From Cyanidioschyzon merolae (Eukaryota), in the NCBI GenBank assembly GCA_000091205.1, contig AP006500.2: a stretch of 64,000 nucleotides of DNA, one strand, 5' to 3'. The number at the start of each line of letters is the position of its first letter. The first letter of the stretch is position 1. The notes under the pieces were generated by a model, which worked only from the letters and a program-made list of their open reading frames with translations, did no database searches and was not told where the DNA came from. Below, in pieces: positions 4,790-53,830 of this stretch. The position numbers and the translations under genes are program-made.

Positions 4790-5455
4790 TGCAGATACCA
4801 GTATGAAGAGGCGCGAAAAGTCATTCCAGGAACCGGCCTTGAATACCCGAACATCCACCATACCAGAATGAAGAGGCACGAAAAGTCAGAATGGTAGTGT
4901 GCCCTATGTACCCGAACATCCACCACACCAGATTGAAGAGGCACGAAAAGTCAGAATGGTTATGTGCACTACGCACCCGAACATCCACCATACCAGTATG
5001 AAGAGGCACGAAAAGTCATTCCAGGAACCGGCCTTGAATACCCGAACATCCACCATACCAGAATGAAGAGGCACGAAAAGTCAGAATGGTTATGTGCACT
5101 ACGCACCCGAACATCCACCATACCAGTATGAAGAGGCACGAAAAGTCATTCCAGGAACCGGCCTTGAATACCCGAACATCCACCGATACCAGAGTGAAGA
5201 GGCACGAAAAGTCAGAATGGTTATGTGCACTACGCACCCGAACATCCACCATACCAGTATGAAGAGGCACGAAAAGTCATTCCAGGAACCGGCCTTGAAT
5301 ACCCGAACATCCACCGATACCAGAGTGAAGAGGCACGAAAAGTCAGAATGGTTATGTGCACTACGCACCCGAACATCCACCATACCAGTATGAAGAGGCA
5401 CGAAAAGTCATTCCAGGAACCGGCCTTGAATACCCGAACATCCACCGATACCGAA
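4790..5455. repeat. Tandem array with higher-order structure: 130-131 bp unit made of two alternating 65-66 bp subunits sharing the core atgaagaggcacgaaaagtca, about 10 subunits, ending at the G6PD start codon
   Basis: Direct reading: ccagtatgaagaggcacgaaaagtcattccaggaaccggccttgaatacccgaacatccaccatac alternates with cagaatgaagaggcacgaaaagtcagaatggttatgtgcactacgcacccgaacatccaccatac. The 131-bp unit starts at about 4993, 5123, 5254 and 5384, with a variant copy from about 4798. Confidence 0.9.
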
Positions 5456-7369
5456 ATGCAGCGCGACGCGTCCAGGAAAAAATCGCGGCGATATCGAGGC
5501 ATCCGTTGCGTACAAGCAGGTGGAGGTCGCTCTCCAGGAACGATGTTCGTAGCTTTACCAAGTGTGCTGTTCACCAGCAAACCCTCAAGGATACGTACTG
5601 TTAAGATTGAAAAGCGTAGAACGTTATTTGCCTGCGACAGGGCGAAAGCAGGCACCGATGGGAACGCTAGCAACGCTGCGGCGTCAGCACCGAAACCCTC
5701 TGCTGCGAGCAGCGGGCGATCTGCTGGTACTGCAGCTCGAGACCAGGTAACGATCAGTGCCCAGACGAGTTCGTCAAACTCGCGGACGATAGATCGAAGC
5801 ACCGATTCATCGCAAACAGTACAGGTTGCGTCCATGTTTGACTCGATGACGAAGCGCCGTGAGGCTGCTCGCCGCGAGGCGCTGAGCATCGTCGTGCTGG
5901 GCGCGTCCGGGGATCTGGCCCGCAAGAAGACGCTCCCGGCGCTTTTCTCACTCTACTACCACGATCTGCTGCCGAGCGACTTTTATGTGGTCGGCTACGC
6001 ACGATCAAACATGACGAGCGAGGCGTTCCGGAACACGATCAAGTCAAGTTTGACCTGCCGCGTTATCGAAGGCCCCGAGTGCGCACGCAAAATGGAGCAT
6101 TTCCTCTCGCGTTGTTTCTACGTTTCCGGAACTTATCATGAAACTACTGCATTCCGAACGCTGGACGAGTTTCTCGTGAACGAGTTTGAGAAAGAGCGCT
6201 GGAATCGCGGGGTTCCGACCAATCGCCTCTACTACTTGGCGATTCCTTCCAACGTCTTCGCTGAGGCCTGTCGCGGCATCGCCCATGCCCACACCAAGCC
6301 TCCGGAGTCGACCAAGGGCTGGATGCGGGTCGTCTTGGAGAAACCGTTCGGGAGAGATCTGGATACCTTCCAGACCCTGCACCAGGAACTGCAATTGTAC
6401 ATTAGCGAGGAACAAACCTTCCGCATTGACCATTACTTGGGCAAGGAGCTCGTTCAGAACGTGCTGGCGCTGCGCTTTGCGAATTATTTTTTGGAGCCTC
6501 TCTGGAACAACCAACACATCCAATCTATCCAGGTGACGTTCAAGGAGAACTTTGGTGTCGAGGGACGCGCTGGCTACTTTGACCAGTACGGAATCATCCG
6601 CGACATCATGCAGAATCACCTGCTGCAAATGGTGGCGCTCTTTACGATGGAACAGCCGGCTTCTTTGAACGCCGAAGATATTCGTGACGAGAAAGTGAAA
6701 GTCTTGCGCAGTTTGGAAACGCTACGTGCTACAGATTTCGTCATCGGGCAGTATATGGGGTATCGGGAGGAAGACGGCGTTCGTCCGGGCTCCAAGACGC
6801 CTACGTTTGCAGCGTGTCGGATGAACATTCGAAACCGACGCTGGGACGGTGTACCGATCCTGGTCAAAGCGGGGAAGCATTTGGATGAACGCCTCGCGGA
6901 AGTGCGTGTCACGTTCCGCAGTGTGCCTGGTAGTATTTTCTCGCTTGCGAATACCCTGCCGAACAATGAGCTTGTTGTTCGCGTTCAGCCCGACGAAGCC
7001 ATTTATCTTCGCATCGTCAGCAAATCCCCGGGGTTGACCTCTCGCCTAGAAGAGGCGCGTCTGACGCTATTCTACCGGACGGCCTGGGAAGAAGCGCACG
7101 ACATTCCCGATGCCTACGAGCGCCTCATCTTGGACGTCATCTATGGTGACAAATCGCTCTTCATACGAAGCGATGAATTAAAAGTCGCCTGGGAGAAGTT
7201 TACGCCGGCGCTTCACGAACTCGAGCAGAGCGACCGCTATCGACCGGTACCGTACGTAGCGGGCAGTCGCGGCCCTGCCGAAGCCGACTACCTTGCCGCG
7301 CGCTACGGATGCGTTTGGGCCAGCGACCTTGACATTGGCGGCAAGCGACTGCAAAGCAAGGTGCCGTAA
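5456..7369 (+). CDS. G6PD: Glucose-6-phosphate 1-dehydrogenase, plastidic redox-regulated type (C-x7-C regulatory cysteine pair), with an N-terminal presequence
   Basis: The track ORF 5225-7369 runs back through the tandem repeat, so I take the first ATG after the repeat (5456, MQRDAS) as the start; ATGs at 5543 (MFVALPSVLF) and 5834 (MFDSM) are alternatives. Dinucleotide-binding motif VVLGASGDLARKKTLPALF, active-site RIDHYLGKE, EKPFGRD. LTCRVIEGPECARKMEHFLSRCFY matches the thioredoxin-regulated cysteine pair of plant plastidic G6PD (LTCRIDKRENCGxKMEQFLKRCFY). TAA at 7367-7369. Confidence 0.85.
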   Translation: MQRDASRKKSRRYRGIRCVQAGGGRSPGTMFVALPSVLFTSKPSRIRTVKIEKRRTLFACDRAKAGTDGNASNAAASAPKPSAASSGRSAGTAARDQVTISAQTSSSNSRTIDRSTDSSQTVQVASMFDSMTKRREAARREALSIVVLGASGDLARKKTLPALFSLYYHDLLPSDFYVVGYARSNMTSEAFRNTIKSSLTCRVIEGPECARKMEHFLSRCFYVSGTYHETTAFRTLDEFLVNEFEKERWNRGVPTNRLYYLAIPSNVFAEACRGIAHAHTKPPESTKGWMRVVLEKPFGRDLDTFQTLHQELQLYISEEQTFRIDHYLGKELVQNVLALRFANYFLEPLWNNQHIQSIQVTFKENFGVEGRAGYFDQYGIIRDIMQNHLLQMVALFTMEQPASLNAEDIRDEKVKVLRSLETLRATDFVIGQYMGYREEDGVRPGSKTPTFAACRMNIRNRRWDGVPILVKAGKHLDERLAEVRVTFRSVPGSIFSLANTLPNNELVVRVQPDEAIYLRIVSKSPGLTSRLEEARLTLFYRTAWEEAHDIPDAYERLILDVIYGDKSLFIRSDELKVAWEKFTPALHELEQSDRYRPVPYVAGSRGPAEADYLAARYGCVWASDLDIGGKRLQSKVP

Positions 7370-7973
7370 AAACCAGACAGTCCGACTTCCGCCTAGTCTG
7401 GATCGGAGGAGTTTCCAGATGCCCTGGCGATTCCCGAATCCCGGTCGGCGCCTACGAAGCCTACCATCAAGCCGGGCATGCACCGCGAGTAGTCGACGCG
7501 CACAACGCGCTCTACGAAAATCCAAAAGCTCGCGGCACCAGCACTTTACAGCCACAAAACTTGTCTCATGAAAGCGGCGAATAAAACCTCTGTCATCGTC
7601 ATCTGTGAATGTACGGGTGAGGCATCGCGGATCGCGCAGCACAGAACACCTCCACGAGATACACCAGTGAATCGTCGCGATAGCACGTCCGGCTGTGATC
7701 TTTTCGGATACACACACAAGACATGCACTGATGGATTCGCTCAGCGGATACCGCTCGACATGCAATGCCCAGTGCCTGCATCCATTCGTGAACGACGCTC
7801 ACACCTGCACTACGCAACAAGCATCAGCGAGACTTGCGATTCGCCACGCAAAGGATGTACCCGCATTGCCGAAATCGTAGCCGCTATCAAAGTGCAGCGT
7901 TCAACGCATGAAAAACGACTCCGCAATTCCAGTCTATCCTTTTGCTGCATCAACAGTCTCGTTTCGGAAGCGA

Positions 7974-10199: not shown

Positions 10200-12119
10200 A
10201 CTGCGTTACGGACGAGTTGCTCAGATTTGGCCACAACATAGGGAAACGGAGCGATAGCCTGGCATGCTCGTCCGACTCGTGGGGCCTTCCGTCTAAAAGG
10301 TAAACTTTCGACAATACCGAAATCTTTTCCCCTTTTTGACGTTTATCGTAGATGGTAAAAGGAATTTTTTATCGTTGCAAGTGAGTGGTTAGTCTCTGTC
10401 CTTTGTTCTACATAGTGCGGTCGATACGCGTACCTCCATATCTAGCAGGCATGAGATACGACGTGCATCTTGTCGCTACAGGGAATAGCGACCCTCACCG
10501 TTATCGTATTGATGGAATATACAAGTTGCATTTGCGTAACAGCCGTACCAAAATGCAAGGTTTCCATTCAGTTGTGTTTCAACCCTCAAGTCAGTGTACT
10601 CATGTGATTTTTTTCCGGTTTATATCAGAAGCGTTCAAAGTGCGTTCTTTTTCAGAAAGAAATAAGAAAGGAAAGTTGTCGAAATGGAAGTGGAGGATCC
10701 CGAAGGCCCTGGGTCACCACCTGGCAGAAAAAACGAAAAAAAGTGCCGCGCGAAGAGGAACAGGAGAATACCAAGGAGCGAACATGGACGCCCCACGTCA
10801 CAAGCTGTCTGAATCGAGAACTCGAACGCAAGGCGGAGATGGAGCTGGGTGTCGAAAAAATGAAGAGTCCGTGGAACGGAAGACTGCGCTTCTCGGGAAG
10901 CGATTCGACGCCGTTCCGTGATATGCAACATCAAGTGGCACTCTGCGACCATCGACTCCAGTGTCCGTCATGGCATTATGAGGGAGACCAGCTCCGAGTT
11001 CGATGTAAGCAACAAGGAATTCACAGGTGAAAACCGGGAGACGTACTGGAAGTATATCGTAGACTTGAAACGTCTCGAAACGGGCAAGAAAAGGCATCCA
11101 CGGAGACGATCGAAACCGATGGTGTAGCCATGTGTGTACGCTATCGGCGGTCGAAGGCAGATCGTCCTGGTCCGCCTTCGATATCGCCCTCGGGGAAGCA
11201 TGAAGAAAAGGAAATGGCAGATCCTAGGATGCAGGAGGTGCAGGAGAGCGACTTTGTTGTTGGCGCGGACCCTGGGGCTACGAACATCGTAACCATCGCA
11301 GTACCCAAGCGTGCGGAAAATGGCATTCGCGGCAACTTGCATCAGAAAGATATGCGTATTTTGAGGTTCTCGAGAGCGAGATACTATCGAGAATCGGGAA
11401 TCATGAATACGAGGAAGAAAATCGAGACATGGAATGCAGGAATGAATGAGCACCAGGAAGCTATGAGCCAGGTGACGAGCCGAGGAGCGGACTGTCGAGC
11501 TTTTCGGGAGTTCATGGAAGTTCGTGTTGCCCATTGGGATGCGCTGTGGGAGGAGTATACCAAGCCCCGGTGGGCTCGTTTGCGTATGAATCTATACGGT
11601 GGGAAGCAGCGGGCCTTTACGAATTCTTTCAATCAGTTGAGTGCCCTGAAGGAGGATGAGAGTCAGGGGCTCGTAGTAGCGTACGGGGCAGGGCGATGGA
11701 AGACCCAAAAAGGGACTACGCCAGCTCCAACGACGAGAACGTGTAAGGAGTGCGCACGGCGTTTTGTTACAATACCGATAGATGAGTTCCGAACGTCCTA
11801 TACACACCATGAGCTGGGGTGTACGCTTCAGAGAGTGGAGATGGAAAAGCGCCAAAGGAGTCCTGAGGAAATCGCAAAGTACGGACCGCTGACGGAGGAG
11901 CAAATGGAAAGGAGAGCGAAAGTTCGAGGATTGCTTGCATTAGTAAGTACAACCAACGATGGCAAGAAACGTATGGAGTTTGTGAACCGAGAATTCAATG
12001 CCGCTATGAATATCAGGAGATGTGCGCTGTTGGAGAATAGACCTCCGGAGTCGACAAGAGGGAACTTGTTGGACAACCTCTCAAAGTGGAACTATATGAG
12101 AAAAAATTGGAAGAAGTAG
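10200..12119 (+). mobile_element. AT-richer island carrying a TnpB/Fanzor-like (OrfB_Zn_ribbon, RuvC-fold) transposon-associated nuclease gene; upstream part fragmented across three reading frames (introns or decay)
   Basis: Composition drops visibly (about 48-50% GC against about 60% in flanks) from about 10.2 to 12.1 kb. Adjacent ORFs in three + frames (10385-10921, 10743-11030, 10918-11127) precede the main ORF 11130-12119. The main ORF carries the RuvC-I GxDxG motif ([12 protein letters not shown]), a zinc ribbon (TCKEC...HHELGC) and a RuvC-III-like NAAxNI motif ([13 protein letters not shown]). Confidence 0.5.
11130..12119 (+). CDS. TnpB/Fanzor-like RuvC nuclease homolog (C-terminal RuvC-I, Zn-ribbon and RuvC-III segment); the canonical catalytic Asp of RuvC-III is replaced (DRDxNAAxNI becomes [10 protein letters not shown]), so it is possibly inactive or domesticated
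   Basis: ATG at 11130. Motifs [67 protein letters not shown]. Basic C-terminal tail. The stop TAG at 12117-12119 is followed in the same frame by a 457-codon ORF. Confidence 0.45.
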
Positions 12120-13493
12120 TTGGTGGCCCGTCGAGAAAGACGGGGAGGCGTCCGCACACCAGTTGGCGACGCTATATCTAACACGCGTTCGCCGCCACTA
12201 CTGTACACCGCTGGCGACTGCTTGCGACCTTTGAAAAGCTTTCGGTCGACACGAAACACCCCTAAAAGGCGATACCGTACATCCCTAAGCAACTCGATAA
12301 AAGATTTGCAACCTCCCAGCGCACGCATGCTTCGGTACAGCTTCATTAACGCCGTCTGGCCGTCCAAGTCATGCGGCAGGGTCCACGTTGAGCGCCATCG
12401 AAAGCAGAAGACACAGTCTGTACAAACTGCACAGCGCTGGAAACTGCGGGCGAACTTGAACCGGCGAGGTCCAGACTCAGCGACCTGGGATCGGCAGGGC
12501 GGTGGCCAGGCGGAGCGCCTGCTTATGGAGCAGGTACTGCAACTGAGGCGAGAGTTAGATGCCTTGCGAGCGGAGAATGAGAGTTTGCGTAAATATCGTG
12601 TCAACGAGCACCTGCTCGTGGATGCCGACGACTCTGTCACAACCGAGGACGGACGGACGCGTTGCGGCAAGCACGGGGAGCGCTCGCGCTATTTACCGGT
12701 CTATTCAGTCGCCCCTGAAGAGGTTCTAAGCCGCGTCATCCCCGTCATTGGACCTAACCCAACGATCGAGCAACTCGACGCAGCAATCACGCTGTCGTTC
12801 CAAGTACGCGATGAGCTGGTGAACCGACGTGGGCTCGAGCGTTACGAGGATGTCATGGCTGGTCGATTCCTCGTGTTCCAGACCAGTGAACTACCTGTCA
12901 AGGGGGTCCAGAGAGTCGCCCTTCCTGGTACGGTAGGATCGATGCGCTGGGCGTCGGCACCAGTTGGTATCCTGATGCCTGCCTCCGAGCTGGGACTGGA
13001 GTCCTTCTACCCGAACGCTCCGACGGATGTCAACTGTCTTGTCATTATCGAGGCTGATTTCGATTCAGAGATCCCCGCGGATACCCTGGCATCACCTGAC
13101 ATCATTCGCGACATCCGAGACGGTACCAAAGACGTGCTCGACCGTATCGAAAACGTTTGGTTCGACGAGCAAGGCCGCGCGTCTCGCGATGCCGGCTTTC
13201 CGAGCTCGCTCACTGAAGAGACAGAAACCGACGAGGACGAGCAACCAGACGAAAACGGTGACGGACCGGAATTCAGTCCGGGGAAATTTTACCTCTGGCT
13301 GGAGGAGAGGCCTCCGCAGGGCGTCGAGTCCGGCGAGGAGCCAGCCCACAGGTGGCACGTTCGCTGGTATGAGCGTCGTCCAGACCCCGCGGTTGACGGT
13401 GTGGAATGCGTTGGCCGCGTGATTACCGTGATAGCACCGAGCGCTTCAAGGCGTCGCACCAAGACGTTTGCCGAAGAGGACGATGTGTTCTAA
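12120..13493 (+). CDS. Hypothetical protein (coiled-coil segment LMEQVLQLRRELDALRAENESLRKY, acidic DE-rich C-terminal region). It is in the same frame as the upstream TnpB-like ORF; the first in-frame ATG is at 12327
   Basis: A 1374-nt stop-free frame at about 60% GC is far longer than chance allows. No recognisable domain. The track start is a TTG; ATG at 12327 (SARMLRYSF). Confidence 0.4.
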   Translation: MVARRERRGGVRTPVGDAISNTRSPPLLYTAGDCLRPLKSFRSTRNTPKRRYRTSLSNSIKDLQPPSARMLRYSFINAVWPSKSCGRVHVERHRKQKTQSVQTAQRWKLRANLNRRGPDSATWDRQGGGQAERLLMEQVLQLRRELDALRAENESLRKYRVNEHLLVDADDSVTTEDGRTRCGKHGERSRYLPVYSVAPEEVLSRVIPVIGPNPTIEQLDAAITLSFQVRDELVNRRGLERYEDVMAGRFLVFQTSELPVKGVQRVALPGTVGSMRWASAPVGILMPASELGLESFYPNAPTDVNCLVIIEADFDSEIPADTLASPDIIRDIRDGTKDVLDRIENVWFDEQGRASRDAGFPSSLTEETETDEDEQPDENGDGPEFSPGKFYLWLEERPPQGVESGEEPAHRWHVRWYERRPDPAVDGVECVGRVITVIAPSASRRRTKTFAEEDDVF

Positions 13494-16400
13494 GATGACG
13501 CCGTCAACGCAACAGGGATGCATCGTACTTGAGGGTCCCCGTATACAGCACTGAGCGAGGGCGAGCTACAGATCCGAACAATGCATTCACGCGAAGTCCA
13601 GTTTGGACCGCACAGCATGCAATATATCATCGTTCATGTACGCGTTATGCCGCTGCATCCGATTCTTTTGGTGACGGGCAGATCGAGCGCGTGAACGTCT
13701 GCATCTGCCCGATAAAATGGACGCTGTTGCGCGCAAAACGCATGCTGTTTCGGGATCATATGTCAAGGAGGCATAAGACCGGCTGAACGCGAGGGCACCT
13801 CTGACAGCGAGCGCAAAGCGCAGAGCACCGCCCGGTACTCGACATCAGTGGAGAGCAGGGCTTGTTTTGGGCGGCAACGAGTCCTCGTTGCCGATAGGCT
13901 GCTGCATTTCAGCAGCGCACTGTCATGCAAAGATAACGAGATAGAGAGTGCGTGCATCACGACACGAGCACGTGTTGAAGTTTGCCTCTAGAGCGATCGA
14001 GGAAATAGCAGGAGTGTCGTACATCGCTCGAGTAATGGCGAAAAATGAATGGTTTGTACTCGGAGCAGTGAGGTTTGAAACAGTCGCGTCAGCGAACGCT
14101 TTTTGTTTTGTTTTCTTTTTGTTTTTCTCACGAGTATAAAACAAATAAAAAATATGTTTTAGATTGGAGCAAGGCTGCGAAAAGGCGTGAGTCTAGTCTC
14201 AGTAGAGTACGGAATAGCGTTATCCTCGCCCAAGTAACGTATTCTTGGGTCAGCAGGTGGATGAATCACCCTTCTCGCGACACTTGTCCTGAACGTCATG
14301 TACCCAAAAGCAGAACTTGTGCAACACTGTCCACGCGACTGTGCGTGTTCGTAAATCCATTCCAGTCCATACGCTGTTCAGGAAATACGATCAAAAAAGC
14401 AGCAGAATGCAAAACTTTCGTACCACGGGTACGAACGTTGATGAAGCGACACAGATGGACACAGGGAAAAGAGCACCCCGCTACGGTAGCCCGTCGAAAG
14501 CGGAACAACACACGATCCATGTCGTCCTCGAACGCGAACACAGCGTCCAGGAGCGATGCGTATTTGTCTCTTTGGAAGCGACTTGAATGAAATGGAGGAC
14601 CTGTATGTAGGTATGCGAAACTTGACAACTCACTGATCGTATCCAAGGGAATCGTGAGCAATTCGACGACATTCACTGTAGCTGCGATGCAAACACGTGG
14701 TAGTCTACAAATCGCCACACGAGCAACTTCGATCAACGCCTCATTCTTTTTCAAGGCAAGCTTCATGGCTTCTCTTCGCCGGATTCTCAAGCCCTGCTCT
14801 TAGACAACGCCGCTTTGCATCGCTCACAAGCTGACAAAAAATACGCTCTTCTTCATGCCAGCCTGTGTTTCGTGAATAAATTCAGACGAAGACTTTTTTT
14901 CAGTGTTGTGCAACGCCATCTCTACGCAAACGGAGCAGCAGATGATTGATTCACATCCGCGACACCGTTCTTTGAAGAATCCTTCGACCATACATGGTTG
15001 TCTGCAATATATACCAGTTCCGTTTTGTTCTGCTGGTCATCTTGACGCGCACCGGAGCGAGAGAAAAGTCCGACTTCGGTCAATGGGCGTGCTGGAGAAA
15101 GAGACGATGACGAAAAGGTGCCTGAGCAATGGTATATGTACATTTAGAAAAGGTGCGATTCGGTGCCACCGTCCACCCGGTCCGTCTGAGACCGCCAAAA
15201 GTAATAATATGGAGTAGAGTGTCCCCAGCGATGCCATCCCGCCAAGCGGGGGCGTTGGCGAAAATGGATCCCGTCTGTGCGAGTACCCATCAAGTATTCG
15301 ATCTACATTGCCATGCGCATTGACGAGGCTCGTTCAAGGTTTCTCGTTCACAGGAAGGAAATGAATACAAGTTGATAAGGACTTGTGCGCGATGCTCATC
15401 GATGCGTTCAGGACCACGTGCTCAACTCATGGGCATGGACGAACGCTGAAACTGGTAGAGAAGAAGCGAACAAAAGAGACCCGAATGCACGACGCGGGGG
15501 TTTGTACGGTACGATGACGGAACGTCAGATGGCAAGGCAATCCATCGCAAGCGGCTCGCGATACGGTCTGATCCCAACAGCCGCCCTGCGTCCGCGTACT
15601 TTCTATACTGAAACTTGAACGCTTCGATTCATACTCGGGAAAGTGTCGTGAATCTGGAGCAGTCAGCGAGTTTTGCGTCATGCGACCTTTGGGGTGAATC
15701 ACGTCGTGGTCATTGTCGAGAACGTACTGAAATACTGAACACTTGCATAGAAAGAAATGTCCGTCTCCAGGAGCGCGCAAGCCGCGGGTCGTCCCCGACA
15801 TCAACGCACTGGAATGGTGCGGTCCGCGATCCAGCACTCTTGATGCACCGTGTATACAAACCAGAAACAATTTTCTTGATGTTTATCAACACACGCAACA
15901 CACGCACCAGCAACCTTGCGGCTCTGTGCACCAGACAATAGACTTGCAGCTTAACAGACCTGCTTCCATGAGTTTATCGAATACGTGCGTCGCCAGCAAC
16001 CCTGCGGCTGCGTGCACCAGACAAGAAACTCCCGACCAAACAGCCCGTCTTCCATAAGCATATAGAATACACGCTTCACGAGCCTCGAAAAGCGTACCGT
16101 TGCGACTCCTTCGCGTGGAAACGCTCGAGCACACACCCGCCGCCTCTGTGGCTTCAGGATACGCGCCGCGCGCTGCCGTTGCCCAGCGCAGCAGCTGCTG
16201 CAACGGAAACGTCAGCGTCTCTCCTCGCCGTTGCCCAGCGCTGCAGCTGCAACGGGTACCGGTTCCACGAGTTTCGTGAATTGACGCTCCAGCCGTCGGG
16301 GTGTAAGGGACACCTATCGACGGCACGCATCGTAAGGCGTTGTGTGCTTCTCCTCAGGTGCTCCGAGAACGCACTCACAAAAGGCGAGCGTCACACTGAG

Positions 16401-24130: not shown

Positions 24131-24169
<39 letters not shown>

Positions 24170-24793: not shown

Positions 24794-26156
24794 CCAGAGC
24801 GGGCCTCTGGTCGAGTCCATGGAACCAGAGTGCACAGCAGGCAGGCAGGCAGGCAGGCAGGCAACCGACTCGAGGATCATGATAGGCAGCGCGCTGGTCG
24901 AGTCTAGTCATGCTCCAGGGCACAACGCCGGGCTATGCGTCGTTCAACAGAGACGCACTGGTCTGTTTTTTGATTCGATGGGTAGAGGCGGCAGCATCGG
25001 GATTCCAACGGGGAATCTTCGCGAACCACATATCGTATCGCACGTTTCACTGGGATTGATTTACGACGCTTTCTTGATACGCAACCTCTAAATACCGATG
25101 CATCATTCATTCGTTCATTCATTGGTTGATTCTAGCGTTGCGCTGTGGATCTGTTGCGGTGGTGCTGGCACGATCACCAACAGGCAACTGCGTACCAGCG
25201 GGCGTACCGTGCGCACCAGCTGCTACATACAACCCGAGTCGGTGTCGCAGCATCCGTTGCTTGGAGTGAGCGCCTACAACCGGATTCTCAACGTTCATGG
25301 CGGTAAGCAACAAAGTGCACCAGCTCGAGTCTGAACGATATGTTTACGGATCGGGACGTGTGCGAGACAAAAGCGTAAATGTCAGCGCAGCTGCTACCAA
25401 GCACGCGAGTTGCTTCGAAGAAAGATGCACCGCTCTGCGAACATATCAGGCACCGAGGACGAATGCTCTCCACGAATGGGCGATGGATCGTGTACTTGGT
25501 CTGGAGTGTTGGCGAATCGTCGTGGAGTGCGCCTCTGCCGGACGCCAGCGTCTGTAGTGACGATACAGAGGCACGGACGTCGTACGGACACCAGGTCTCG
25601 CGAATCCAGCGCATGTGCATCACTCTGGATCGTAGGTACCGCAGCAGGTGACCCGGGAAAGGCGCGCGAGTGAGTTTCCCATCCATCACGTGGAGACGCG
25701 GAAAACGGCAATCGAAACGTATGGGAGCGGTCAAGTGAAGCGTCCCGGTACCTGGTTTGCGCGCTTCTCTAGGAGAGCACAGGTGCGCGGTGCTCGCGCA
25801 CCACCACGCGCGACGGTCGCTGCTGCTGGTGCTAAACTCGGGCATCGGCCAGCGGTATTTTCGTCATTCGCGTCCGAGACGGAGTTAGCGAGTCAGCGGC
25901 AGCTGGGCGGCTCGATATGGGAGAAAGCGCGTACCCGGTGGTTTCCCTGGTCAGCTGTCCATCCGACCGTTATGTGCCGCCTTCGAACCGAGCGCCAATA
26001 CGGGATCAATGAATAGGCTGTGTATCGCATTGCGAGGCTGCAGGCGAACCGAAAAGCGCGCACAAGTCTGCGGCTCCAACAGACGTATTCACCAACATGT
26101 ATCGATATGTGCTGAAAACCCGCAATCGGGAAGTATCCCGGAATACGCACCATGCC

Positions 26157-28457: not shown

Positions 28458-28599
28458 CACGTCCGTCAATGAACAAGCACGTGTTCGTTAGAGCAACGAA
28501 GCAGTATGGACACGTGCGTGGTGTGTGCCCCGTGATCGCTACGCTTTTTCGACGCAAAGCCGCAACGACCTGCTCCAGGCGAGCGGCGAACGCCCCAGA

Positions 28600-29810
28600 C
28601 GTACAGTGCTGGTGCGAGACGCCCGGAGCGTTCCATGCGGTGGGAAACGTCCCCGCCGCCTCCTCCTCCTCCTCGTGCACACAACCGACACCGCCAAAGC
28701 ACAAAGCGTGAAACGTGATCACTGGTACGGAATAGCGTCAACACTGGGTGCTTGTTCATGGATGGGCTATGGACGGTGGTCCCGGGCAGTGCCGTGCGGT
28801 GGGAAACGTCCCCGCCGCCTCCTCCTCCTCCTCGTGCACACAACCGACACCGCCAAAGCACAAAGCGTGAAACGTGATCACTGGTACGGAATAGCGTCAA
28901 CACTGGGTGCTTGTTCATGGATGGGTTATGGACGGTGGTCCCGGGCAGTGCCGTGCGGTGGGAAACGTCCCCGCCGCCTCCTCCTCATCCTCCTCCTCCT
29001 CCTCGTGCACACAACCGACACCGCCAAAGCACAAAGCGTGAAACGTGATCACTGGTACGGAATAGCGTCAACACTGGGTGCTTGTTCATGGATGGGCTAT
29101 GGACGGTGGTCCCGGGCAGTGCCGTGCGGTGGGAAACGTCCCCGCCGCCTCCTCCTCATCCTCCTCCTCCTCCTCCTCGTGCACACAACCGACACCGCCA
29201 AAGCACAAAGCGTGAAACGTGATCACTGCTACGGAACAGCGTCAACACTGGGTGCTTGTTCATGGATGGGTTATGGACGGTGGTCCCGGGCAGTGCCGTG
29301 CGGTGGGAAACGTCCCCGCCGCCTCCTCCTCATCCTCCTCCTCCTCCTCGTGCACACAACCGACACCGCCAAAGCACAAAGCGTGAAACGTGATCACTGG
29401 TACGGAACAGCGTCAACACTGGGTGCTTGTTCATGGATGGGTTATGGACGGTGGTCCCGGGCAGTGCCGTGCGGTGGGAAACGTCCCCGCCGCCTCCTCC
29501 TCATCCTTCTCCTCCGCCTCGTGCACGCAACCGACACCGCCAAAGCACAAAGCGTGAAACATGATCACTGGTACGGAACAGCGTCAACACTGGGTGCTTG
29601 TTCATGGATGGGTTATGGACGGTGGTCCCGGGCAGTGCCGTGCGGTGGGAAACGTCCCCGCCGCCTCCTCCTCATCCTCCTCCTCCGCCTCGTGCACACA
29701 ACCGACACCGCCAAAGCACAAAGCGTGAAACGTGATCACTGGTACGGAATAGCGTCAACACTGGGTGCTTGTTCATGGATGGGTTATGGACGGTGGTCCG
29801 GGTGCAAACC
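28600..29810. repeat. Tandem minisatellite, about 7 copies of a 159-174 bp unit containing a variable (CCT)n tract, immediately upstream (about 140 bp) of the RRM-protein start codon
   Basis: The unit ggtggtcccgggcagtgccgtgcggtgggaaacgtccccgccgcc(tcc)n tcgtgcacacaaccgacaccgccaaagcacaaagcgtgaaacgtgatcactggtacggaatagcgtcaacactgggtgcttgttcatggatgggttatggac recurs with period 159, 159, 171, 174, 170, 172 bp. The track ORFs 28525-29901 (+) and 28466-28918 (-) are translations of this repeat. Confidence 0.9.
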
Positions 29811-30679
29811 TGCTTGGCGGGTACCAACTTGGTCGTGGTTTACGCGTGTGACAAGCGTACCCGAAGCGCGTATCGTCATGAATGGATTTCGTGCTTGGTA
29901 GGCTGCGGACTGGATGCAAAGCTGCTCGATGCAGTGTAGCAGCGGAGTCGATGTTGGATAGCAGCAGTGTTTGGTTGACGTGCATCACTGGGGTTGCGTG
30001 AGTGAGGCATCAGGAATCACGTTATAGAAAAAGATGTATGTCAACGATGAGCACTCAGGGCATGATCGCGGGGGAGTCGAGGTCGCATCATCCGGCATCC
30101 GCAACGATCGAAAATGATGTTGCTTCCCTGCTGTTGGCGGCTATGTGTTCGGTACCAGGTATTGTGTTCGGGTGCAATACGCAACGTCCATCGCTCAACA
30201 AACATGAAGGATAAGTAGCATGGCGGAGGAGTTTCAGAGGAGCGCGGATCCCTGGACCGGTTGCGCTGCTCGCGCTCGGTAAATGTTTCCGATCCTGTTC
30301 TCGGCGAATAGGATCGATATTCAGAGAGCAGTAGTACAGGATTCGGGACACTAGGTCGACTTTTTGAAACGGCTGGTTCGGCGAGTTGCCGCTGCAATTC
30401 ATCAAGTCACTGAAATCAAGATGAATTGTGATGTCGGCGAACACCGGTGCCGCAAAGTAATCCATTTCGCGATCCAATGCATACGTACATGCCTCCACTA
30501 GTCCCATTTGCTTACACGCAGCACGCTGGAATCATGCGCTCTTCAACTTGTCGATCTTTCTGTTCTAAAAAAACTCCCGGGTGTAGTGATTCGCGTGGCT
30601 GGGTCCCCGGGCTCAGAAACTCAACGTCGTGCCTTGACGACTTTATATACAACTCCGGCCGAAATATCACTGAAACGCT

Positions 30680-30900
30680 CAAGGCAAATACGGATCGAGT
30701 TCATTCGAAAGAGGAATTCCTCTATCTTTGAGTCCATCGCCAAAACCGCATTCGATAGCAGGATGAAACCTCGTACGAGATACGCTCCAAACACGCCCGT
30801 CTCTTTTTTTCGGAATGAAGAAAAAGGGCCCTGGACTCGAACTCGACTCGTCGCAGCGATCACTTGTAACGGAGATTGCGTCACAGTATTGCACGACGGG
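30680..30900 (-). repeat. Copy 1 of a dispersed SINE-like element of about 200 bp carrying a tRNA B-box-like motif (gagttcgagtcc)
   Basis: Shares about 70% identity with 39890-40100 (+) and, more weakly, with 61700-61900 (-). Conserved blocks gacgcaatct, gatcgctgcRaYga, tcRagtYcgagtYcaaggcc. The short ORFs translate to similar peptides (SDRCDESSSSPGPF / NDRCNDSSPSSRPF / TDRCNDSCPYPRPF). Confidence 0.55.
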
Positions 30901-31909
30901 ATCGTAGACGGGGTGGAATTTCTCGACTTGCTCTCTAGCCGAGATTTTCCTTCGGGTTCAAGTTCCATTATGGACGACAATGCGTTCCATGAATCCGGTA
31001 TTAACTGGAACAAAGTGAGTTTTCGTTGGTGCAGAAGAAAGCGATTGCGGTGAGGGCATTGCTCAGAAAAAGCGTGAGATCGTCGAGTACGGCACTGGGC
31101 GGATACCCGGCACAGAGGGTTACCGAGGCGAGCCTTCTCTACCCGTCCAGGGCAGGTACTGGGCTATGAAACAGGCGCATGTCGCACTGCAGGGCGGCCC
31201 ACGGAGCATGCATAATGGTGAATGCACGGGAGTACCTGACGAGTATCCTTTGGAAGCGCTGGGCGGGCCAAACCGGTGCTATATACAAAGAAAATGAAAA
31301 ACGCTCGAAGCGAAGATCATAACCTGCGACTGGGCCTGCATTGCGTCGGTAAAGAAAATGGAAAACGCTCGAAGCGAAGATCATAACCTGCGACTGGGCC
31401 TGCATTGCGTCGATAACAGCGTAGAGCACCGAAATCGGGATTTGAACGCTGTCCCCAACATCCTTCGAATACTGACAACAGAGCTGCAAGAACAGAAGAC
31501 ATCGCCGAATGTACATCCAGAGATAAGAAAGAGTGCGGATAAACAAAACAGTCACCGACAAATCCAGTCATGGCCGGTGTTGATAACATCAGAAACAACC
31601 CACAGCTCTCATGTGAGCGCCCCAGTACGAGCACCCGTTCCAGTTTGATTTGATATGCATATAGACGAACGTGGGAAAACGAACCCCAAACTCTGGATGA
31701 TTTCAAGACATACCCCAGAATATGAGTCCGAGACCAGGATGCATCCGGCAGGGCAGCGGCTGGTTTCGCGTCGCTGGTCGGGTACAGGACGAACACCACG
31801 AGGCCCCAATTAGTTTGCAATCCGAGCGAATCCACTCCGTCGGCACCGCTATCCGAATATCCCCGTCTTTCATCAACAACAGAGCAAGTGGCATGTTGGT
31901 GCTCAAACT

Positions 31910-32748
31910 CTAGGCTAGCGCTACATTACCGGTGAGATGGTGTTGGAGCATCTCGACCAGGCGCGAGATGACCAGTTTTGGTGCCTGCGAGCGCACCACT
32001 AGCGCTACCCGCGGCGGTGTGGACTCGACAACCATTTCGCCCAACATTGGTGCACTGAGACCCATCTGAGCTGCCCAGAACACCTGCCAGACAGACGCAT
32101 CAGTCGGCTGGAGCCAGCGCTCCGCCATGATCGACAAGGTCTGTGTCAGCGCCCGGAGACGCGTCCGAACGTCTGATACCGTCTGCGAGGCGGCTCGCTC
32201 CCAGTTGAAACGCTCTTCAGCAGCGGATCCCAAACGATTCCACTGGTCTAGAAAAGCTGCTCGATCAAGGGAGCGAGGTGTCGCGTGGATCGCCTCCATG
32301 ACCGGTATCGTATCGGAAAAGTAGAGCACCCCCAGTGGTGTGCACTTGATGGCAATTTGCACCAGATTCGCTCGTTGATCAGCGAATGCTTCCTTCTGGA
32401 TGGTGAGCGGGAGCACCACCACCGCACTGTCGCCTCGTTGAAGGATTGGTGGCTCCGTTGTGAAGCGCGGCGGTGCCACGACCCCAAAGATGTTCTTGTT
32501 CAGTTGAATCGCAAAATCACCGACGCCCTGAGCTGCGGCAATATTCTCCAACAGCAAACGCAGCTGCATGCCATGCGTCTCATCAAATGACGATGACGAT
32601 GTCCGAGATCGCACCAGTCCACCGGTAATACGTAGCCCGTGTCCGGCCTCTGTCGATAAGAGCAAGCGAGGCGGAATATGATCAGGAGCCGCAGGCAAAG
32701 GAACCTCATTCCCGCTTGGCACCGAACGGGACGCTGAGGTCGAGCGCT

Positions 32749-32779
<31 letters not shown>

Positions 32780-36189: not shown

Positions 36190-36520
36190 CCGGGCGACAC
36201 AATGCATCCATCGATGAATGCCGGGAAGTATCGTCCAATAATATTCATTATTGACGCAATTTTCGAAGCAACCCGACACAATGCATCCATCGATGAATGC
36301 CGGGAAGTATCGTCCAATAATATTCATTATTGACCCAATTTTCGAAGCAACCCGACACGATGCATCCATCGATGAATGCAAGGAAGTATCGTCCAATGAT
36401 ATTCATTATTGACCCAATTTTCGAAGCAACCCGACACGATGCATCCATCGATGAATGCCGGGAAGTATCGTCCAATAATATTCATTATTGACCCAATTTT
36501 CGAAGCAATCCCCTGCGGGA
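36190..36520. repeat. Tandem array, 4 copies of an 81-bp AT-richer unit containing two near-palindromes, about 150 bp upstream of the NusG-like ATG
   Basis: Unit gacacRatgcatccatcgatgaatgccgggaagtatcgtccaataatattcattattgacccaattttcgaagcaaccc repeated from about 36193, 36276, 36356 and 36437. Near-palindromes: gcatccatcgatgaatgc and aataatattcattatt. Confidence 0.9.
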
Positions 36521-36667
36521 CACGTTTCCATCCAGCGCCGCCTCTGAGCGCGTCGCGGCGCTTTCTCAAGCGCTATCCCGGTCGCGTTCGCGTTGCTGGA
36601 ATATGCGGAGCAACGCTCATACCGACTAGACGCTGGACTGCATACCGCTCGAGCTGGTACCGCTACT

Positions 36668-37978: not shown

Positions 37979-39889
37979 ACATACGGGCGCGACCAAGTAC
38001 TGCGCCCTGGACGCACTGTGGCTGGTCGCGAATGGAAGCCAGCGTGCATCTTTCCGTGAACACGGCATCCCGTGGCAGCAACTGCAGCAGCAGCAGCAGT
38101 AGCTGCAACGGCAGCAGGTACGGAAGCGATTGGGGTTGCGCTCAGCGTCGGGGCGCCAGCCTTGAGCGCCCTTTTGGATGCACACAGCGATCAGCATGGG
38201 CTCCGGGAGCACCAGCTGCTCAAGAGCTCTGGATTATGATCTCTCAGTCGAGGCGCTATCCGCTAGGAACCGCATTTGCGTCGTGTGGCGAGGGCGGGAA
38301 GAGTGCTTGGCACCCGAGACGCTCGGCTGGACTCGGGACGTATGCGGCTGTTGCGATGATCCTCACCACCGTATTCATGAGCGAACGGAACCTTCGAGAT
38401 GTTCAAGTCGTATGTCGCTGCCGCTATGAGCGCAGTAAACACGCTGATCCTAGGATTTGCGGTTAAACGAGCCAGCTGGACCTTGCATGGATGTGTTGCG
38501 AGACTGCTTCCGCAGACAGTCTGCCTAGCTCCACAAGCATAGCGCTGCAGTGCGTCCCCGATGGTGCAGCGAACGCCCGAGGACGCTCCACTCTGACGCG
38601 ATACCGGCATTGTGGGTAGAGCGGACCTTGCCACATCGCCTTTTTCCGCGCTGTGGAAGACGCGCTCGATCGCGGCGCTGCTCACGTTCACACGTGCGAT
38701 GCAACCAGTACTGGATACGATCAGCAGTATCAGGCCGCAAACCCGGGAACGTATGGCGTCGGTACGAAGCGTACAAAGCGGCTGGCTCGCAAGTGCAACG
38801 CGTTCATCGCATTCTGGGGCAAGAAACGCGCTCGCTTCAGGAGGATCCGTCATTCGGGTAGCAGCGGAGACGAATGGCGCCTGCGAGAGGTACGGCGTCG
38901 CGCGGGCGTCTGTGGATACGTCAACGGCACGATGCTGAACCCGAAGACTGGTTTTGAGCGTGTTGAACGCAGGAACGCCAAGGCCAACAGCAACGCTCGT
39001 CGTTTCCGTGGTTGCGTAGAGCTCGCGCGCCTTCACGTGGAACCTGACGCGATCCACGGAGGCGACACCACACAGAAATACTCCACTGCGGACAGAACGG
39101 CAGCATCGGGTATATGGTGGCAACTCGGGTGCAAACACAAACGCTGTTTACACGGCGAGATGCCGGTATGTACGCATACCAGGATAAGAAGAGACGCGTC
39201 TGTCGCGATGACTCGAGCGTGCACCCTAAAATGTTGAGCCTCTTTCCGGTGTCATGAGCATCGGCCGGTGCGGGCTTCTCTACGACTGCTTGGTTTTCCG
39301 CTCTCACGGATCCCTGGATCGAAAAACGCCGGTCTCTCTTTTGTTGTCAGACTCGATGTCGACTGCCCAATGATGCTGATGGCAGTGTTCAGGAAGTCGC
39401 CACAACGTCGCACACAGCTGCTGGCACGGCATGACATGGACTGACAGAAGTTTCCATCTACGCTTTGCTCGCTGAGTTCATCTTCTTTGGGTGCGGCCTC
39501 GGAGCGCATGTCGCATTCGTGACGCATTGCTGTGTGGTGAGGTGCTCCCGTCTATCCACGGGATATCGTTAGCACGCGCGCCCTCTGAGCACTGCCTTGG
39601 GGCCCGTAAACGCTCGCTTCATCGTTCGGTACCCGCAATCGACGGGCGGCCAGACGCCTCCGGTCGATGCTCACTTCCGTTTCCGCGTCACGGGGCGGGA
39701 TTCTATGATCTCGGGCCTTTTCTAGGGAACCTCGCGGACTAGTACGCTGTCTGCTGCACGCGCAAGTGCAAGCAGTCCAATTCGGTAGAGGATCTGTGGC
39801 GCACAATGTTTTCCATGATGAAAAAGATATCAAACGGAAACCAAGGCGAGAGAAGCATCCAAGAGTGATTCCGATACGTCTACAGTGCC

Positions 39890-40100
39890 TTTGTGCAAAG
39901 CGACGACGCAATCTGCACTCGAAATGATCGCTGCAATGACTCAAGTCCGAGTTCAAGGCCGTTTTCCATGCAAGCACAAGGGATGTATGCTGCTGGGCGC
40001 AAATCCCGTGCCAGATACCGTGATGCTGCTTTCAAATGCCGTTTCGCCAATGGCCAGAAAGACAGCAGGATTTTGCCTGTCGAACGATATCGATTCTTTG
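39890..40100 (+). repeat. Copy 2 of the dispersed SINE-like element of about 200 bp
   Basis: See copy 1. Contains gatcgctgcaatgactcaagtccgagttcaaggcc. Confidence 0.5.
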
Positions 40101-40629
40101 ACGTGGCAAGTTCAGTGAACGTGTAGCATCAGTGTGTAGGGCGACTCGTCAATCACGAGGCGCGAACTGCTGCTTCCACCAGTTGCCTTGAAACCAAAAG
40201 ATCGAAAACCAGAATCACATGTGATTTGATCATGGTCCATGTAAGGCAACGAGATGCTTCCTGGACGGAATGTCTGCACTGCACCAGGGTACCGCGGGGC
40301 TACGAACGCTCGTTCGTGCGGGCGCGTCTCGTCGTCTGATGTCGATCGCAATGAAGCTGTGATTTTCAGCTGCGGTTCGTCGAGTGATCCAACACGGAAA
40401 GACTGATCGAAAAATACCTTTAGAACGACGGACGCAATCGTAAGCCCCCGTTTTTCGCCGCACTTTGCCTGCCAAAGCTGTATATCTGAACGTGCTCGAC
40501 AAGGAGCACGCGGCAAGCACCGGACAAACGGCGCGCTAGTCGATGATCGTCGCGCACACTGCGGACCTTCGAGGCGGAATCCGTTGATAACGTGTACATA
40601 AATGTTCATTTGCGGAACAATCGCCCTTA

Positions 40630-48287: not shown

Positions 48288-48349
48288 CGAAATGCGTCGA
48301 GCGCACGCCGCCGGCGATGCGGATGCTGGCCCTGGCGGGAACTGGAGAA

Positions 48350-48480
48350 CGTGAATCTTATGAAACTATATTATATAAAAATATAAAGAATTGGATTCAT
48401 AGGGATTATCATGATATAAATGAGAAATAAATGACATACACGTTTGAATATAAAATGGTATAAGTATGCACTATACGGAC
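48350..48480 (-). promoter_or_regulatory. AT-rich patch with TATA-like runs (tatataaaaatataaag) 65-190 bp upstream of the ATG of the 44220-48287 gene; candidate core promoter
   Basis: About 130 bp at roughly 20-25% GC embedded in about 60% GC sequence, located just 5' of a minus-strand start codon. Confidence 0.3.
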
Positions 48481-49380
48481 TGTGATCGATGGAGTCCTGG
48501 GCGCACGCCTCAGTCGCTTCCTGGTGAATCGCGGGCCCGTCGGGTTCCGTACGCGTTGCCGCCTCGGTCGGTATGCCTGGCGTATTCCGTGCTGCTCTCC
48601 CAAGAGCAAGGTGCGTCTACCGACAAGCAAGCAGATCGAGTTCAACGCTGCACAACAGCCGCGGAGAGTAAGCGCCAGAACATGCACGAGGTCACCAACC
48701 GGTTGACCACGTCCCTATGAGGTCGCGTACGAGCGCATTTTCGGTTTGCCAGCACGTTTACACGGACCGGTAAACATTGATGGTGCGCTTTATATCGTCG
48801 ATCCGGAATGCATCCATCATTCCACGCCCTATTTTCCATCTCTATCACGCATACTTCCCCTCAAAGATATCGGTGATGTCTCGGGTTCCACCACGAGCCG
48901 AGCTCGCCGTCAGCCTTGAACATGTCGCCTCTAACGCCGGTGCCGACGATACCCGGAGAAAGAACAGCCCTGCCATATCGCGCAGCGCATCCGCTCAGCG
49001 ACGCACGTTCGATGTACTGGCCACAACGGGCGATGCCCCGCGACGCTAGGGCGTGAAACGCGGTACGACTGCTCAGGCAAGTTCTCCGTGGGAGCGTAGG
49101 CGTCCTGGAATTTGAAAATGAGGTGTGGAATGACGGACGCATTCCCGATCAAAGATACGTAGCGCACGTTCAGGAATCACCAGTCATTGGAAACGCTTTG
49201 TCAAAACAGGAGTTTGCGGTCGCTGTCGCTCTGGAAGCGCTCCTGTACGGTGAGCTTTCGATAACGCCGCCAGCGCAACAAAGTGCACGATCGATGCCTG
49301 CGCCTCGGGTGCCGTTCTTTCAGGAACACCAGAATCTGAGTCCGAACGACCCGTATCCCAAGAAAAAAAAACCTGCCTGG

Positions 49381-52083: not shown

Positions 52084-53104
52084 ACTTGACTATTGCAAGT
52101 CTATAGCAAATACGTTGTTCGGTGGTATGGCAAGGTGTTGACGGCAGTAGCGCCTGCGAAGCGCAGACATGTGCGCGCGCAGCCGTCGAGGTCGTTTACC
52201 GGTGATGCTTTTCGCAGAAGCGCGATGCTCAGAGTACACACGCCTTGTGCGGAAACGACGATCGAATAAATGAGCAGAAAGAACTTGCAGGGCGAGTCAG
52301 TCGCACTCGTGCGAGATGCAGGATGCTCGCTTTGCGCATAAAACGTCATCGGTACACGCGCATGGTACATGTTTTCGGGTGGTATATGGATCGCACCATG
52401 GCAACCCACAGGTGCATTCTGTACGCGAGGTAGCGACAGCGACTTGTGTATCAGGCGGCTCGTGTCCAGGGCAGGGGGTCCAGGCTAGGCACGCCCCGTG
52501 CTCGGGTTCGTACAACGACTCGCAGACCGTGTGCTTGGATTTCGATTTCCCTCACCCAATATGATAGCGTGGGAGCGAGCGAGAGAGACAGAGAATCTCC
52601 AGGGCGTCCAAGCAACGTGAAACGTGCGGTTGCGCTTCGTACTGCTGGCATTCGCGCAGCCGAGTGCCGCTGACGAGGTCCGTGAATCCTGTCACAAAAA
52701 AAAAGCTTTGTCTTCTCTCCAGAGCTCTGGACGCCGAGTGAACGCTCCGCAACTACCTCGATCCAGGAAGCACAGGTCCAGAGATGCCCAGAGCGCTTCC
52801 ACTTTTAGTCCCAAACGAGCGTATCTGTCCGGCACCTGCTCTGAAAATGAAAATGCCCCATGCAACCCAGTCGGTCCGCCTTGAACCGAAAAGGTGCACA
52901 CATCCCACGCAAGAGCGTACCGTACCGCCTTGATGCTCAAGGTATATGGTTCGACACCGGCTCCCGTCCCCTGGAACATGCCACATCCAGAGCGCAGGAT
53001 GAGGTGTTTCCCGGGCACAGGAAGCGTGCAAAGCGCCGACGCTCGAACGCCGCCTTCTCATCAGCGATGTCTTGCCTATACTAAAAACATCGCAGTACAG
53101 TGAT

Positions 53105-53830
53105 CATCATTAAGGTCATCATCACCATCATCATCAGCGATGCCTCTGTTATGATATACATCATACTACATTGATAATCATCATCTTCATCATCATCGTC
53201 AGCGATGCCTCTCATATTCCATACATCATTATACATTGATAAGCATCATTATGGTCATCATCATCATCTTCTTCTTCTTCATCAGCGATGCCTCTCATAT
53301 TCCATACATCATCATACATTGATAAGCATCATTATGGTCATCATCATCATCTTCATCTTCTTCTTCTTCTTCGTCCGCGACGCCTCTCATATTCCATACA
53401 TCATTATACATTGATAAGCATCATAATCGTCGTCGTTAACATCATCATCATCATCTTCTTCTTCATCAGCGATGCCTCTCATACTCCATACATCATCATA
53501 CATTGATAAGCATCATTATGGTCATCATCATCTTCTTCTTCTTCTTCGTCCGCGATCCTCTCATATTCCATACATCATCATACATTGATAATCATCATAA
53601 TCGTCGTCGTTAACATCATCATCATCATCTTCTTCTTCATCAGCGATGCCTCTCATATTCCATACATCATCATACATTGATAAGCATCATTATGGTCATC
53701 ATCATCATCATCTTCTTCTTCTTCTTCTTCGTCCGCGACGCCTCTCATATTCCATACATCATTATACATTGATAAGCATCATTATCGTCGTCGTTAACAT
53801 CATCATCTTCTTCTTCTTCAGCGATAACCG
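53105..53830. repeat. Tandem array of about 8-9 units (about 80-100 bp), each = (CAT)n/(CTT)n microsatellite + agcgatgcctctcatattccatacatcatYatacattgataagcatcatta; each unit carries a GATA-type motif (TGATAAG); the array ends about 200 bp upstream of the S2P protease ATG
   Basis: Direct reading. agcgatgcctct recurs at about 53126, 53200, 53283, 53369 (variant), 53463, 53539, 53643 and 53733. Track ORFs in this interval (MPLIFHTS...HHHH) are translations of the repeat. Confidence 0.88.

Follow-up and report, generated by a model that had tools for sequence, protein, structure and literature searches.

Four mutually unrelated tandem repeat arrays, each adjoining the 5' side of a gene, lie in a 64,000-nucleotide stretch of DNA from Cyanidioschyzon merolae, a red alga (contig AP006500.2 of assembly GCA_000091205.1), hereafter the window. 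We refer to them as A1 to A4; they precede the genes for G6PD, an RRM protein, a NusG/SAP protein and an S2P protease, respectively. We show that these repeats are genuine, that they have a local origin and do not code for protein, and that they vary among strains and are absent from sister species. We put the probability at about 0.6 that they are young, lineage-specific minisatellites of variable copy number (variable number tandem repeats, VNTRs), situated upstream of the transcription start and with a modest, real placement bias. Their position relative to the transcription start, the cause of this bias and any effect on expression are inferred.

Structure of the four arrays

The arrays were delimited with Tandem Repeats Finder (TRF) and by alignment of their units. 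A1 (4795-5461) is composed of ten 65/66-bp subunits of two types, A and B, which follow the order A B B (A B)x3 A and end in a partial unit. Its subunits are 96-100% identical, its higher-order unit is 131 bp, and its edge lies 81-90 bp from the G6PD ATG (5543). A2 (28629-29806) contains 6.8 copies of a 171-bp unit, 97-100% identical, in which (CCT)n length variants produce a 345-bp dimer; its edge is 171 bp from the ATG of the RRM protein (28457, minus strand). A3 (36195-36508) has 4.0 copies of a 79-bp unit, 95-100% identical, and lies 159 bp from the NusG/SAP ATG (36668) and, on its other side, 1378 bp from the ATG of the divergent adaptin gene (34816). A4 (53104-53825) begins with about 2.3 units of 65 bp and continues with about six of 92 bp. 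The units of A4 are lengthened through (TCA)n/(TCT)n tracts, and two unit types alternate, giving a dimer of about 184 bp. The array lies 212-218 bp from the S2P ATG (54038) and, on its other side, 1020 bp from the ATG of the divergent RFC1 gene (52083).

All four have the properties of minisatellites: the units run head to tail, measure 65-171 bp, occur in 4-10 copies and are 90-100% identical. Combined, they occupy 4.5% of the window, or 11% when only its intergenic DNA is counted. A preliminary description of this DNA had reported four unrelated arrays, each just upstream of a start codon. Both points stand: TRF and alignment recovered the multi-copy arrays within 5-60 bp of where they had been placed, and all four adjoin the 5' side of a gene, with gaps of 81-218 bp to the likely ATG.

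The same description had set the arrays apart from random satellite DNA, and here too our results agree. No similarity was found among the arrays or to the remaining window, beyond (CCT)n low complexity. Outside its own array, no unit recurred in the window, nor in the syntenic sequence of two relatives, of which about 60 kb each was compared. Degenerate units are present in the flanks: A4 has a proto-unit at about 53055, and for A3 they lie at 36509-36535. Thus, the arrays are not dispersed satellite DNA, and each arose from its own local sequence.

Copy number and unit order differ among strains

We compared the window with metagenome contigs that are 99% identical to it (L001-L006, L014-L018, L024, L028-L035). 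All four arrays are present at the same sites in these strains, with different copy numbers and unit orders. Since the same arrays occupy the same sites in independent assemblies, they are not assembly artefacts. Across strains, the number of units per locus ranges over 1-7, 2-4 or 5-10. Several contigs end at array edges (L004-L006, L014, L015, L024, L034, L035).

For A3, alleles of four units (L028), three units (L029, L031) and two units (L033) were found, and these carry unit-specific single-nucleotide polymorphisms. The terminal units are retained in the A3 alleles and interior units are absent. The alleles of A1 are ABBAA (L016), AABBAA (L017) and ABB(AB)3A (window). The gene-distal ABB core of A1 is common to all alleles, and most of the variation is gene-proximal. 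Some A1 subunits in other strains are recombinant, joining the 5' half of B to the 3' half of A. At A4, the RFC1-S2P spacer measures 1669, 1576 and 1484 bp in L001-L003 versus 1954-1955 bp in the window, that is, it changes in steps of about 92 bp. Between strains the A4 array is 81-83% alignable, and its flanks are 99-100% identical. At A2, a single 152-176-bp unit stands between the same flanks in L028, L030 and L032, about two units are found in L029, and 6.8 in the window. There is CCCGG microhomology between the flanks at the A2 junction, and the one-unit contigs look like the state before duplication.

All of these are short-read metagenome contigs, in which near-identical units may be collapsed, so that low counts are insecure for A2, whose units are 97-100% identical, and for the (AB)n stretch within A1. 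Collapse cannot explain the A3 alleles, nor the A1 alleles with units missing from the window.

The arrays are absent from sister species

Comparison loci were taken from Cyanidiococcus yangmingshanensis (L007, L012) and from a second relative with about 77% protein identity (L008-L013, L025, L026). Jointly, the loci of both relatives span nearly the entire window. No array comparable to A1-A4 was found in any of the four orthologous spacers of the two species. The four spacers of the relatives are shorter by roughly the array length. The SQD1-G6PD spacer is 2343 bp in the window and 1518 bp in the relatives, and the adaptin-NusG spacer is 1851 bp and 1259 bp, respectively. The RFC1-S2P spacer is 1954 bp in the window and 1624 and 1461 bp in the relatives, and the RRM-adaptin spacer is 3452 bp and 738 and 1009 bp. 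No intergenic DNA could be aligned between the window and the two relatives, so that orthology of the arrays was excluded by absence and spacer length only. Judged by these comparisons, the large arrays are peculiar to the lineage of the window.

The second relative has repeats of its own at NusG: the first 310 bp or so upstream of the gene contain a 58-bp x 2 duplication and a (TCACGCACGCACCC)x3.9 tract. A (CACG)n / (TCACGCACGCACCC)n microsatellite is found 30-60 bp upstream of the NusG start codon in the relatives (L012:9948-9971, L013:9511-9569). The window has no microsatellite at this position; array A3 is present instead. In a third relative (L027, a contig from the European Nucleotide Archive), G6PD is 78% identical over 82% of the query and the gene order is different. 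At the end of this contig (L027:1-220) there is a perfect 93-bp x 2.4 array, which overlaps a called open reading frame (ORF).

Probable position with respect to the transcript

The start codons used here, like the transcription starts, are predicted. On the gene strand, ATG occurs 10-18 times in each array. It occurs once in the 623 bp that the four segments from array to start codon add up to, where an intergenic background of 1.64 per 100 bp would predict about 10. The A1-to-G6PD segment (5462-5542, plus strand), presumably the core promoter and 5' untranslated region, has no ATG in 81 bp. The A2-to-RRM segment (28458-28628, minus strand) has none in 171 bp on the gene strand, and the A4-to-S2P segment (53826-54037, plus strand) has none in 212 bp. 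In the A3-to-NusG segment (36509-36667, plus strand), the one ATG belongs to a short upstream ORF at -65. ATG-free leaders of 65-340 bp are also found at other genes in the window.

A leader that included an array would be full of upstream ATGs, so that the most likely place for transcription to begin is between the edge of the array and the ATG. The arrays would then probably sit in non-transcribed DNA of the proximal upstream region, outside the 5' untranslated region.

We also considered whether the leaders between array and ATG are conserved among strains beyond their surroundings. This holds for G6PD, where segment 5462-5542 is identical in L016 and L017, and for S2P, where segment 53826-54037 is identical in L001-L003. 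It fails for NusG and RRM, and extra conservation was rejected as a general property.

One protein in the metagenome set (P0124, a 99% match to window 5543-7369) is a 659-amino-acid call for G6PD. The call is 51 amino acids longer upstream than the 608-amino-acid reading, and this N-terminal extension would reach into A1. The metagenome gene callers place spurious ORFs in or through arrays, including small ORFs between RFC1 and S2P (L001-L003, L028-L035).

Placement relative to start codons

To assess the placement, we used a set of 15 gene models, which are backed by tblastx conservation to the right of about 22 kb and by comparison with the relatives in the left part. These leave 14 intergenic spacers with a total of 26.3 kb, and 9 of the 14 have at least one promoter side. 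For the null distribution, arrays of the observed lengths were dropped uniformly into these 26.3 kb. All four fell as near to start codons as observed, within 218 bp, with a probability of 0.0009. A statistic based on the summed distance of the four arrays gave P = 0.0027. When two further 2-copy duplications in the window were also counted, 4 of 6 repeats lay within 220 bp (P = 0.007). Thus, the 5' placement noted in the preliminary description is unlikely under a uniform intergenic model (P of about 0.001-0.007). The 5'-proximal bias in this window is nominally significant, and we regard it as suggestive. With a published genome size of 16.5 Mb for C. merolae, the genome amounts to about 260 such windows, which keeps P = 0.001 from being decisive. 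For C. merolae, 3335 TRF rows are given in Ensembl (PMC11050394).

Several observations weigh against the reading of the arrays as minisatellites with a placement bias, in addition to the possible collapse of units in the strain contigs. There are only four arrays, and the window was picked post hoc for its striking pattern. The two 2-copy duplications in the window, 509 bp 5' and 493 bp 3' of genes, are off the pattern, and the second of them, a 64-bp duplication 3' of adaptin, is a counter-example to a strictly 5' placement. The second relative has a 79-bp x 2 duplication midway along its RFC1-S2P spacer, and its convergent 3'-3' spacer between TOR and RRM holds a 101-bp x 2.7 array (L013:1720-1988). 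These repeats imply that long-unit repeats in the family are not restricted to 5' regions. Finally, the arrays have no motif in common beyond chance and no common composition (G+C of 0.37-0.60); a 9-mer seemingly common to A1 and A3 was produced by joining the A1 unit into a circle.

Much of this could also be accounted for if the arrays were neutral minisatellites with no promoter bias, the placement of all four at 5' ends being a small-sample, post-hoc coincidence in a compact genome. With a threshold of 500 bp, the product of the four per-array probabilities is already 0.017. At least one promoter adjoins 9 of the 14 spacers in a window chosen as striking, copy number varies freely among strains, and neither the two further duplications of the window nor two of the three long-unit repeats of the sister species are promoter-proximal. 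Nevertheless, we consider this explanation doubtful. It has to accommodate P values of 0.0009-0.007 in the window. In the tandem spacers that hold A1 and A2, 1.6-2.1 kb is left free on the 3' side, but both arrays abut the 5' end of the next gene. Moreover, promoter enrichment of tandem repeats has been reported in other eukaryotes: in humans, tandem repeats are dense at gene starts (Sawaya et al. 2013, PMC3566118).

Origin and turnover

Under the reading of A1-A4 as young VNTRs with a placement bias, the arrays would have been born in place. Local upstream DNA of 65-171 bp would have been tandemly duplicated at short direct repeats or microsatellite tracts. Expansion, contraction and homogenization would then have followed through unequal exchange or replication slippage. 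Such a history would explain the dimeric higher-order units and the recombinant units. Together with the degenerate units at the edges and the microhomology at the junction, they fit duplication followed by exchange or slippage. The 5' position would most likely reflect a real but modest bias, resembling that in promoters of yeast and humans, with tandem repeats born, or retained, more frequently in accessible promoter DNA. The expansion mechanism aimed at promoters that the preliminary description had suggested would be a conjecture.

A stronger version of this idea is that the upstream edge of the transcription start region is a hotspot at which long-unit minisatellites arise and turn over in the C. 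merolae lineage. Such a hotspot might be caused by meiotic breaks in nucleosome-free promoter DNA or by encounters between replication and transcription. The polar variation of A1, in which the distal ABB core is fixed and the gene-proximal part is variable, could be the signature of a flanking hotspot. We hold this version to be tentative and rather unlikely. If it were true, promoter arrays would be a main source of cis-regulatory variation in C. merolae, for which about 0.7% transposons and few introns have been reported.

Motifs and possible function

The preliminary description had offered functional promoter repeats as one explanation for the consistent placement. We find no support for this, since copy number varies, motifs vary between units, and the corresponding spacers of the relatives have no arrays. 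Free copy-number variation and absence from orthologous promoters argue against a required promoter architecture. At most, it is possible that the arrays modulate promoter strength or spacing.

The A3 unit holds a near-palindrome, CATCGATGAATG, and the same 12-mer is found 478 bp upstream of NusG in C. yangmingshanensis. About 0.007 such matches are expected for that pair, a value that is marginal after correction for 24 comparisons. In the second relative, the 58-bp x 2 duplication contains a related GCATCAATCGA core about 200 bp upstream of NusG. The 12-mer is mutated among A3 units and strains, to CATCGATCAATG and CATCGACCAATG. For A1, A2 and A4, the search gave no shared motif.

These matches bear on the proposal that the arrays are selected promoter repeats, in which every unit would contain a transcription-factor site and amplification would have been selected for raising or tuning the expression of the adjacent gene. 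The recurrence of CATCGATGAATG upstream of NusG in C. yangmingshanensis and the GCATCAATCGA-core duplication in the second relative speak in its favour. Synthetic arrays do so too: in C. merolae, transcription is activated by twelve tandem binding sites (12 x ZBS) placed upstream of a core promoter (PMC12770821). According to the same paper, of 2025, endogenous promoters of the alga have been neither characterised nor dissected. However, the 12-mer mutates between units and strains (CATCGATCAATG, CATCGACCAATG) and its match is marginal; copy number is unfixed within the species; the orthologous promoters of both relatives are without arrays; and the arrays share no motif. We therefore judge selection for promoter repeats to be improbable.

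Two candidate features of the upstream regions were tried and rejected. An AT-rich composition, such as that of nucleosome-free DNA, is not a shared trait: three of the four arrays are AT-enriched, A2 has 60% GC, and upstream regions generally show no such signature. The motif ATCGAT was rejected on testing as a general promoter element.

Coding, RNA and transposon explanations

Coding repeats were rejected for the arrays as a class. A2 alone has a period divisible by three. A 458-amino-acid ORF with a GTG start runs through A2, in which one frame is open. Differences between A2 units, read in the frame of the ORF, are mostly non-synonymous, and the GC2 pattern is like that of non-coding ORFs. 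The A2 ORF had no Pfam hit above the curated cut-off and no tblastx homologue in the relatives.

The arrays had no Rfam match at gathering score and no tRNAs, and permissive RNA-family searches at E<=1 found nothing in A1-A3. On the minus strand of A4, archaeal C/D small RNA families matched at up to 28.9 bits, versus cut-offs of 35-50. C/D small nucleolar RNA (snoRNA) genes in A4 were rejected: the hits stem from (UGA)n and one CUGA, and alternate units have CGGA in place of this CUGA and are without a D box. The flanks of the A4 units are purine-only, which makes a terminal stem impossible. Folding z-scores of the arrays were -0.6 to +2.1 and give no sign of structured RNA.

It is thus very improbable that the arrays are tandem small-RNA genes, such as minus-strand C/D-box snoRNAs in A4, or a repeat-protein gene, as the A2 ORF might be. 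The weak A4 matches do have their boxes in the correct order (best score 28.9 bits), and the period of A2 is a multiple of three with one open frame across. Against this, all Rfam hits fell more than 15 bits short of the gathering score and none lay in A1-A3, and the A2 ORF is GTG-started and has neither homologues nor coding-type constraint.

The WSV486-like interspersed repeat of C. merolae is about 3.2 kb long, carries a truncated ORF and is dispersed (Nozaki 2007; PMC1955436). This repeat, and transposable elements more generally, were rejected as a source of the arrays, which measure 0.3-1.2 kb, have short units, show no ORF homology and have no dispersed copies. That the arrays are an assembly artefact, as the frequent breaks of same-species short-read contigs at array edges might suggest, or an inserted foreign or transposon-derived satellite is scarcely credible, given that at least 10 independent contigs from different samples cross the arrays at the same sites, that degenerate units stand in the flanks and that there is no other copy in any compared sequence.

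Comparison with known systems

Searches of the literature on tandem repeats or minisatellites in Cyanidioschyzon and Cyanidiophyceae turned up no account of promoter-proximal arrays. Similar arrangements exist elsewhere. In Saccharomyces cerevisiae, Vinces et al. (2009) reportedly described unstable promoter repeats as a source of transcriptional evolvability and measured their effects on nucleosomes and expression. Like A1-A4, the yeast repeats are locus-specific, have an unstable copy number that differs between strains, and stand less than a few hundred bp upstream of genes, in a genome that is compact and poor in introns. They are mostly short and AT-rich, whereas A1-A4 have units of 65-171 bp and three of the four are AT-enriched. 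The 126-bp x 5 repeat at CYP51 of Penicillium digitatum and the TR34/TR46 repeats at cyp51A of Aspergillus fumigatus have a demonstrated effect on expression and a known selective agent. They resemble A1-A4 in unit size (34-126 bp), in lying just upstream of one gene and in having arisen independently from promoter sequence at the locus. The difference from both the yeast and the CYP51 cases, where effects were measured and, for CYP51, the selective agent is known, is that A1-A4 are known from sequence alone.

Upstream VNTRs are also found at the human INS and MAOA genes. Human promoter microsatellites and VNTRs, like A1-A4, stand at gene starts, are polymorphic and may modulate regulation. 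The enrichment in humans is genome-wide, whereas here it rests on four arrays in 64 kb. Hypervariable minisatellites of the Jeffreys type have 10-200-bp units and variant repeats, undergo unequal exchange or conversion, and show end-biased variation. A1 is similar in that its variation is concentrated at one end, the gene-proximal one. For human minisatellites the link to meiotic hotspots is documented; for A1-A4, which were typed from metagenome assemblies and not from pedigrees, it is speculative.

In Arabidopsis, tandem repeats in the FWA and SDC promoters attract silencing. By analogy, direct repeats directly upstream of a gene could recruit repressive chromatin in C. merolae. There, H3K27me3 covers about half of the annotated repeats (PMC5405695); the study concerned annotated dispersed repeats, not A1-A4.

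With A1-A4, a red alga is added to the organisms that have polymorphic tandem repeats beside gene starts. If arrays are indeed concentrated at promoter edges, C. merolae, a minimal model eukaryote, would offer a natural copy-number series for the study of promoters. The arrays could then also provide strain markers for hot-spring populations, and would be a hazard for promoter cloning and for short-read assembly, in which many contigs break at arrays.

Other repeats in the window

The preliminary description had stated that arrays are absent from gene bodies and 3' ends. This is correct for the large multi-copy arrays and does not extend to short repeats or to the 64-bp duplication. TRF detected micro- or mini-repeats inside coding sequence (at 20227, 20585, 24118, 32749 and 41663) and 3' of genes (at 24837, 42913 and 43920). 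The 64-bp x 2.0 tandem duplication (31287-31416, TRF), 493 bp 3' of the adaptin stop codon, is single-copy in strain L032. The other 2-copy repeat is an 86-bp x 1.9 tandem duplication (15907-16070, TRF), 76% identical, which lies 509 bp 5' of the TOR ATG (16580) and is also found in strain contigs L014 and L016. This old duplication marks the upstream end of an unusually long ATG-poor stretch, in which ATGs occur at -25 and then at -612 from the TOR start.

Beyond A2, the RRM-adaptin spacer continues for about 2.1 kb (29807-31909) of lower G+C (0.515 in the bin 30001-32000). This segment has no conserved coding sequence and is 99.2-99.5% identical in all same-species strains. In both relatives, the whole RRM-adaptin spacer is merely 738-1009 bp.

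Genes of the window

The spacer at 37979-40629 (2.65 kb) holds a 291-amino-acid ORF (38263-39138, minus strand), for which there was no Pfam match and no conservation in the relatives. At 11130-13493, two ORFs (11130-12119 and 12120-13493) lie in one frame with a single stop codon between them. Only the second half of this pair (about 12443-13493) is conserved in the relatives, and the arrangement could reflect a mis-set start, a pseudogene, read-through or a sequence error.

The genes of the window are long, intron-free and eukaryotic, and include TOR (2737 amino acids in a single ORF), beta-adaptin, RFC1 and SQD1. Further genes encode a plastid-type G6PD, a GT4 glycosyltransferase, the NusG/SAP protein, the S2P/RseP protease and a C5 DNA methyltransferase. 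JGI and Logan metagenome contigs encode proteins that match S2P at 100% identity; identity is 77% to the protein of C. yangmingshanensis and 50% to that of Cyanidium caldarium. Among the protein hits for S2P, NusG and G6PD, none was labelled C. merolae 10D, and looking up the exact SQD1 and RRM products gave no match. Judged by synteny and the literature, the window is C. merolae or a strain with at least 99% identity to it. On chromosome 18 of C. merolae 10D, SQD1 is locus CMR012C and SQD2 is CMR015C (PMC4928187). In the window, the genes follow the order SQD1 - G6PD - GT4 (SQD2) - x - TOR. With TOR, which we take to be CMR018C in C. merolae 10D (a locus named in a review on TOR signalling in microalgae, PMC9664231), the locus numbers CMR012C/CMR015C/CMR018C match this order, and the window thus resembles chromosome 18.

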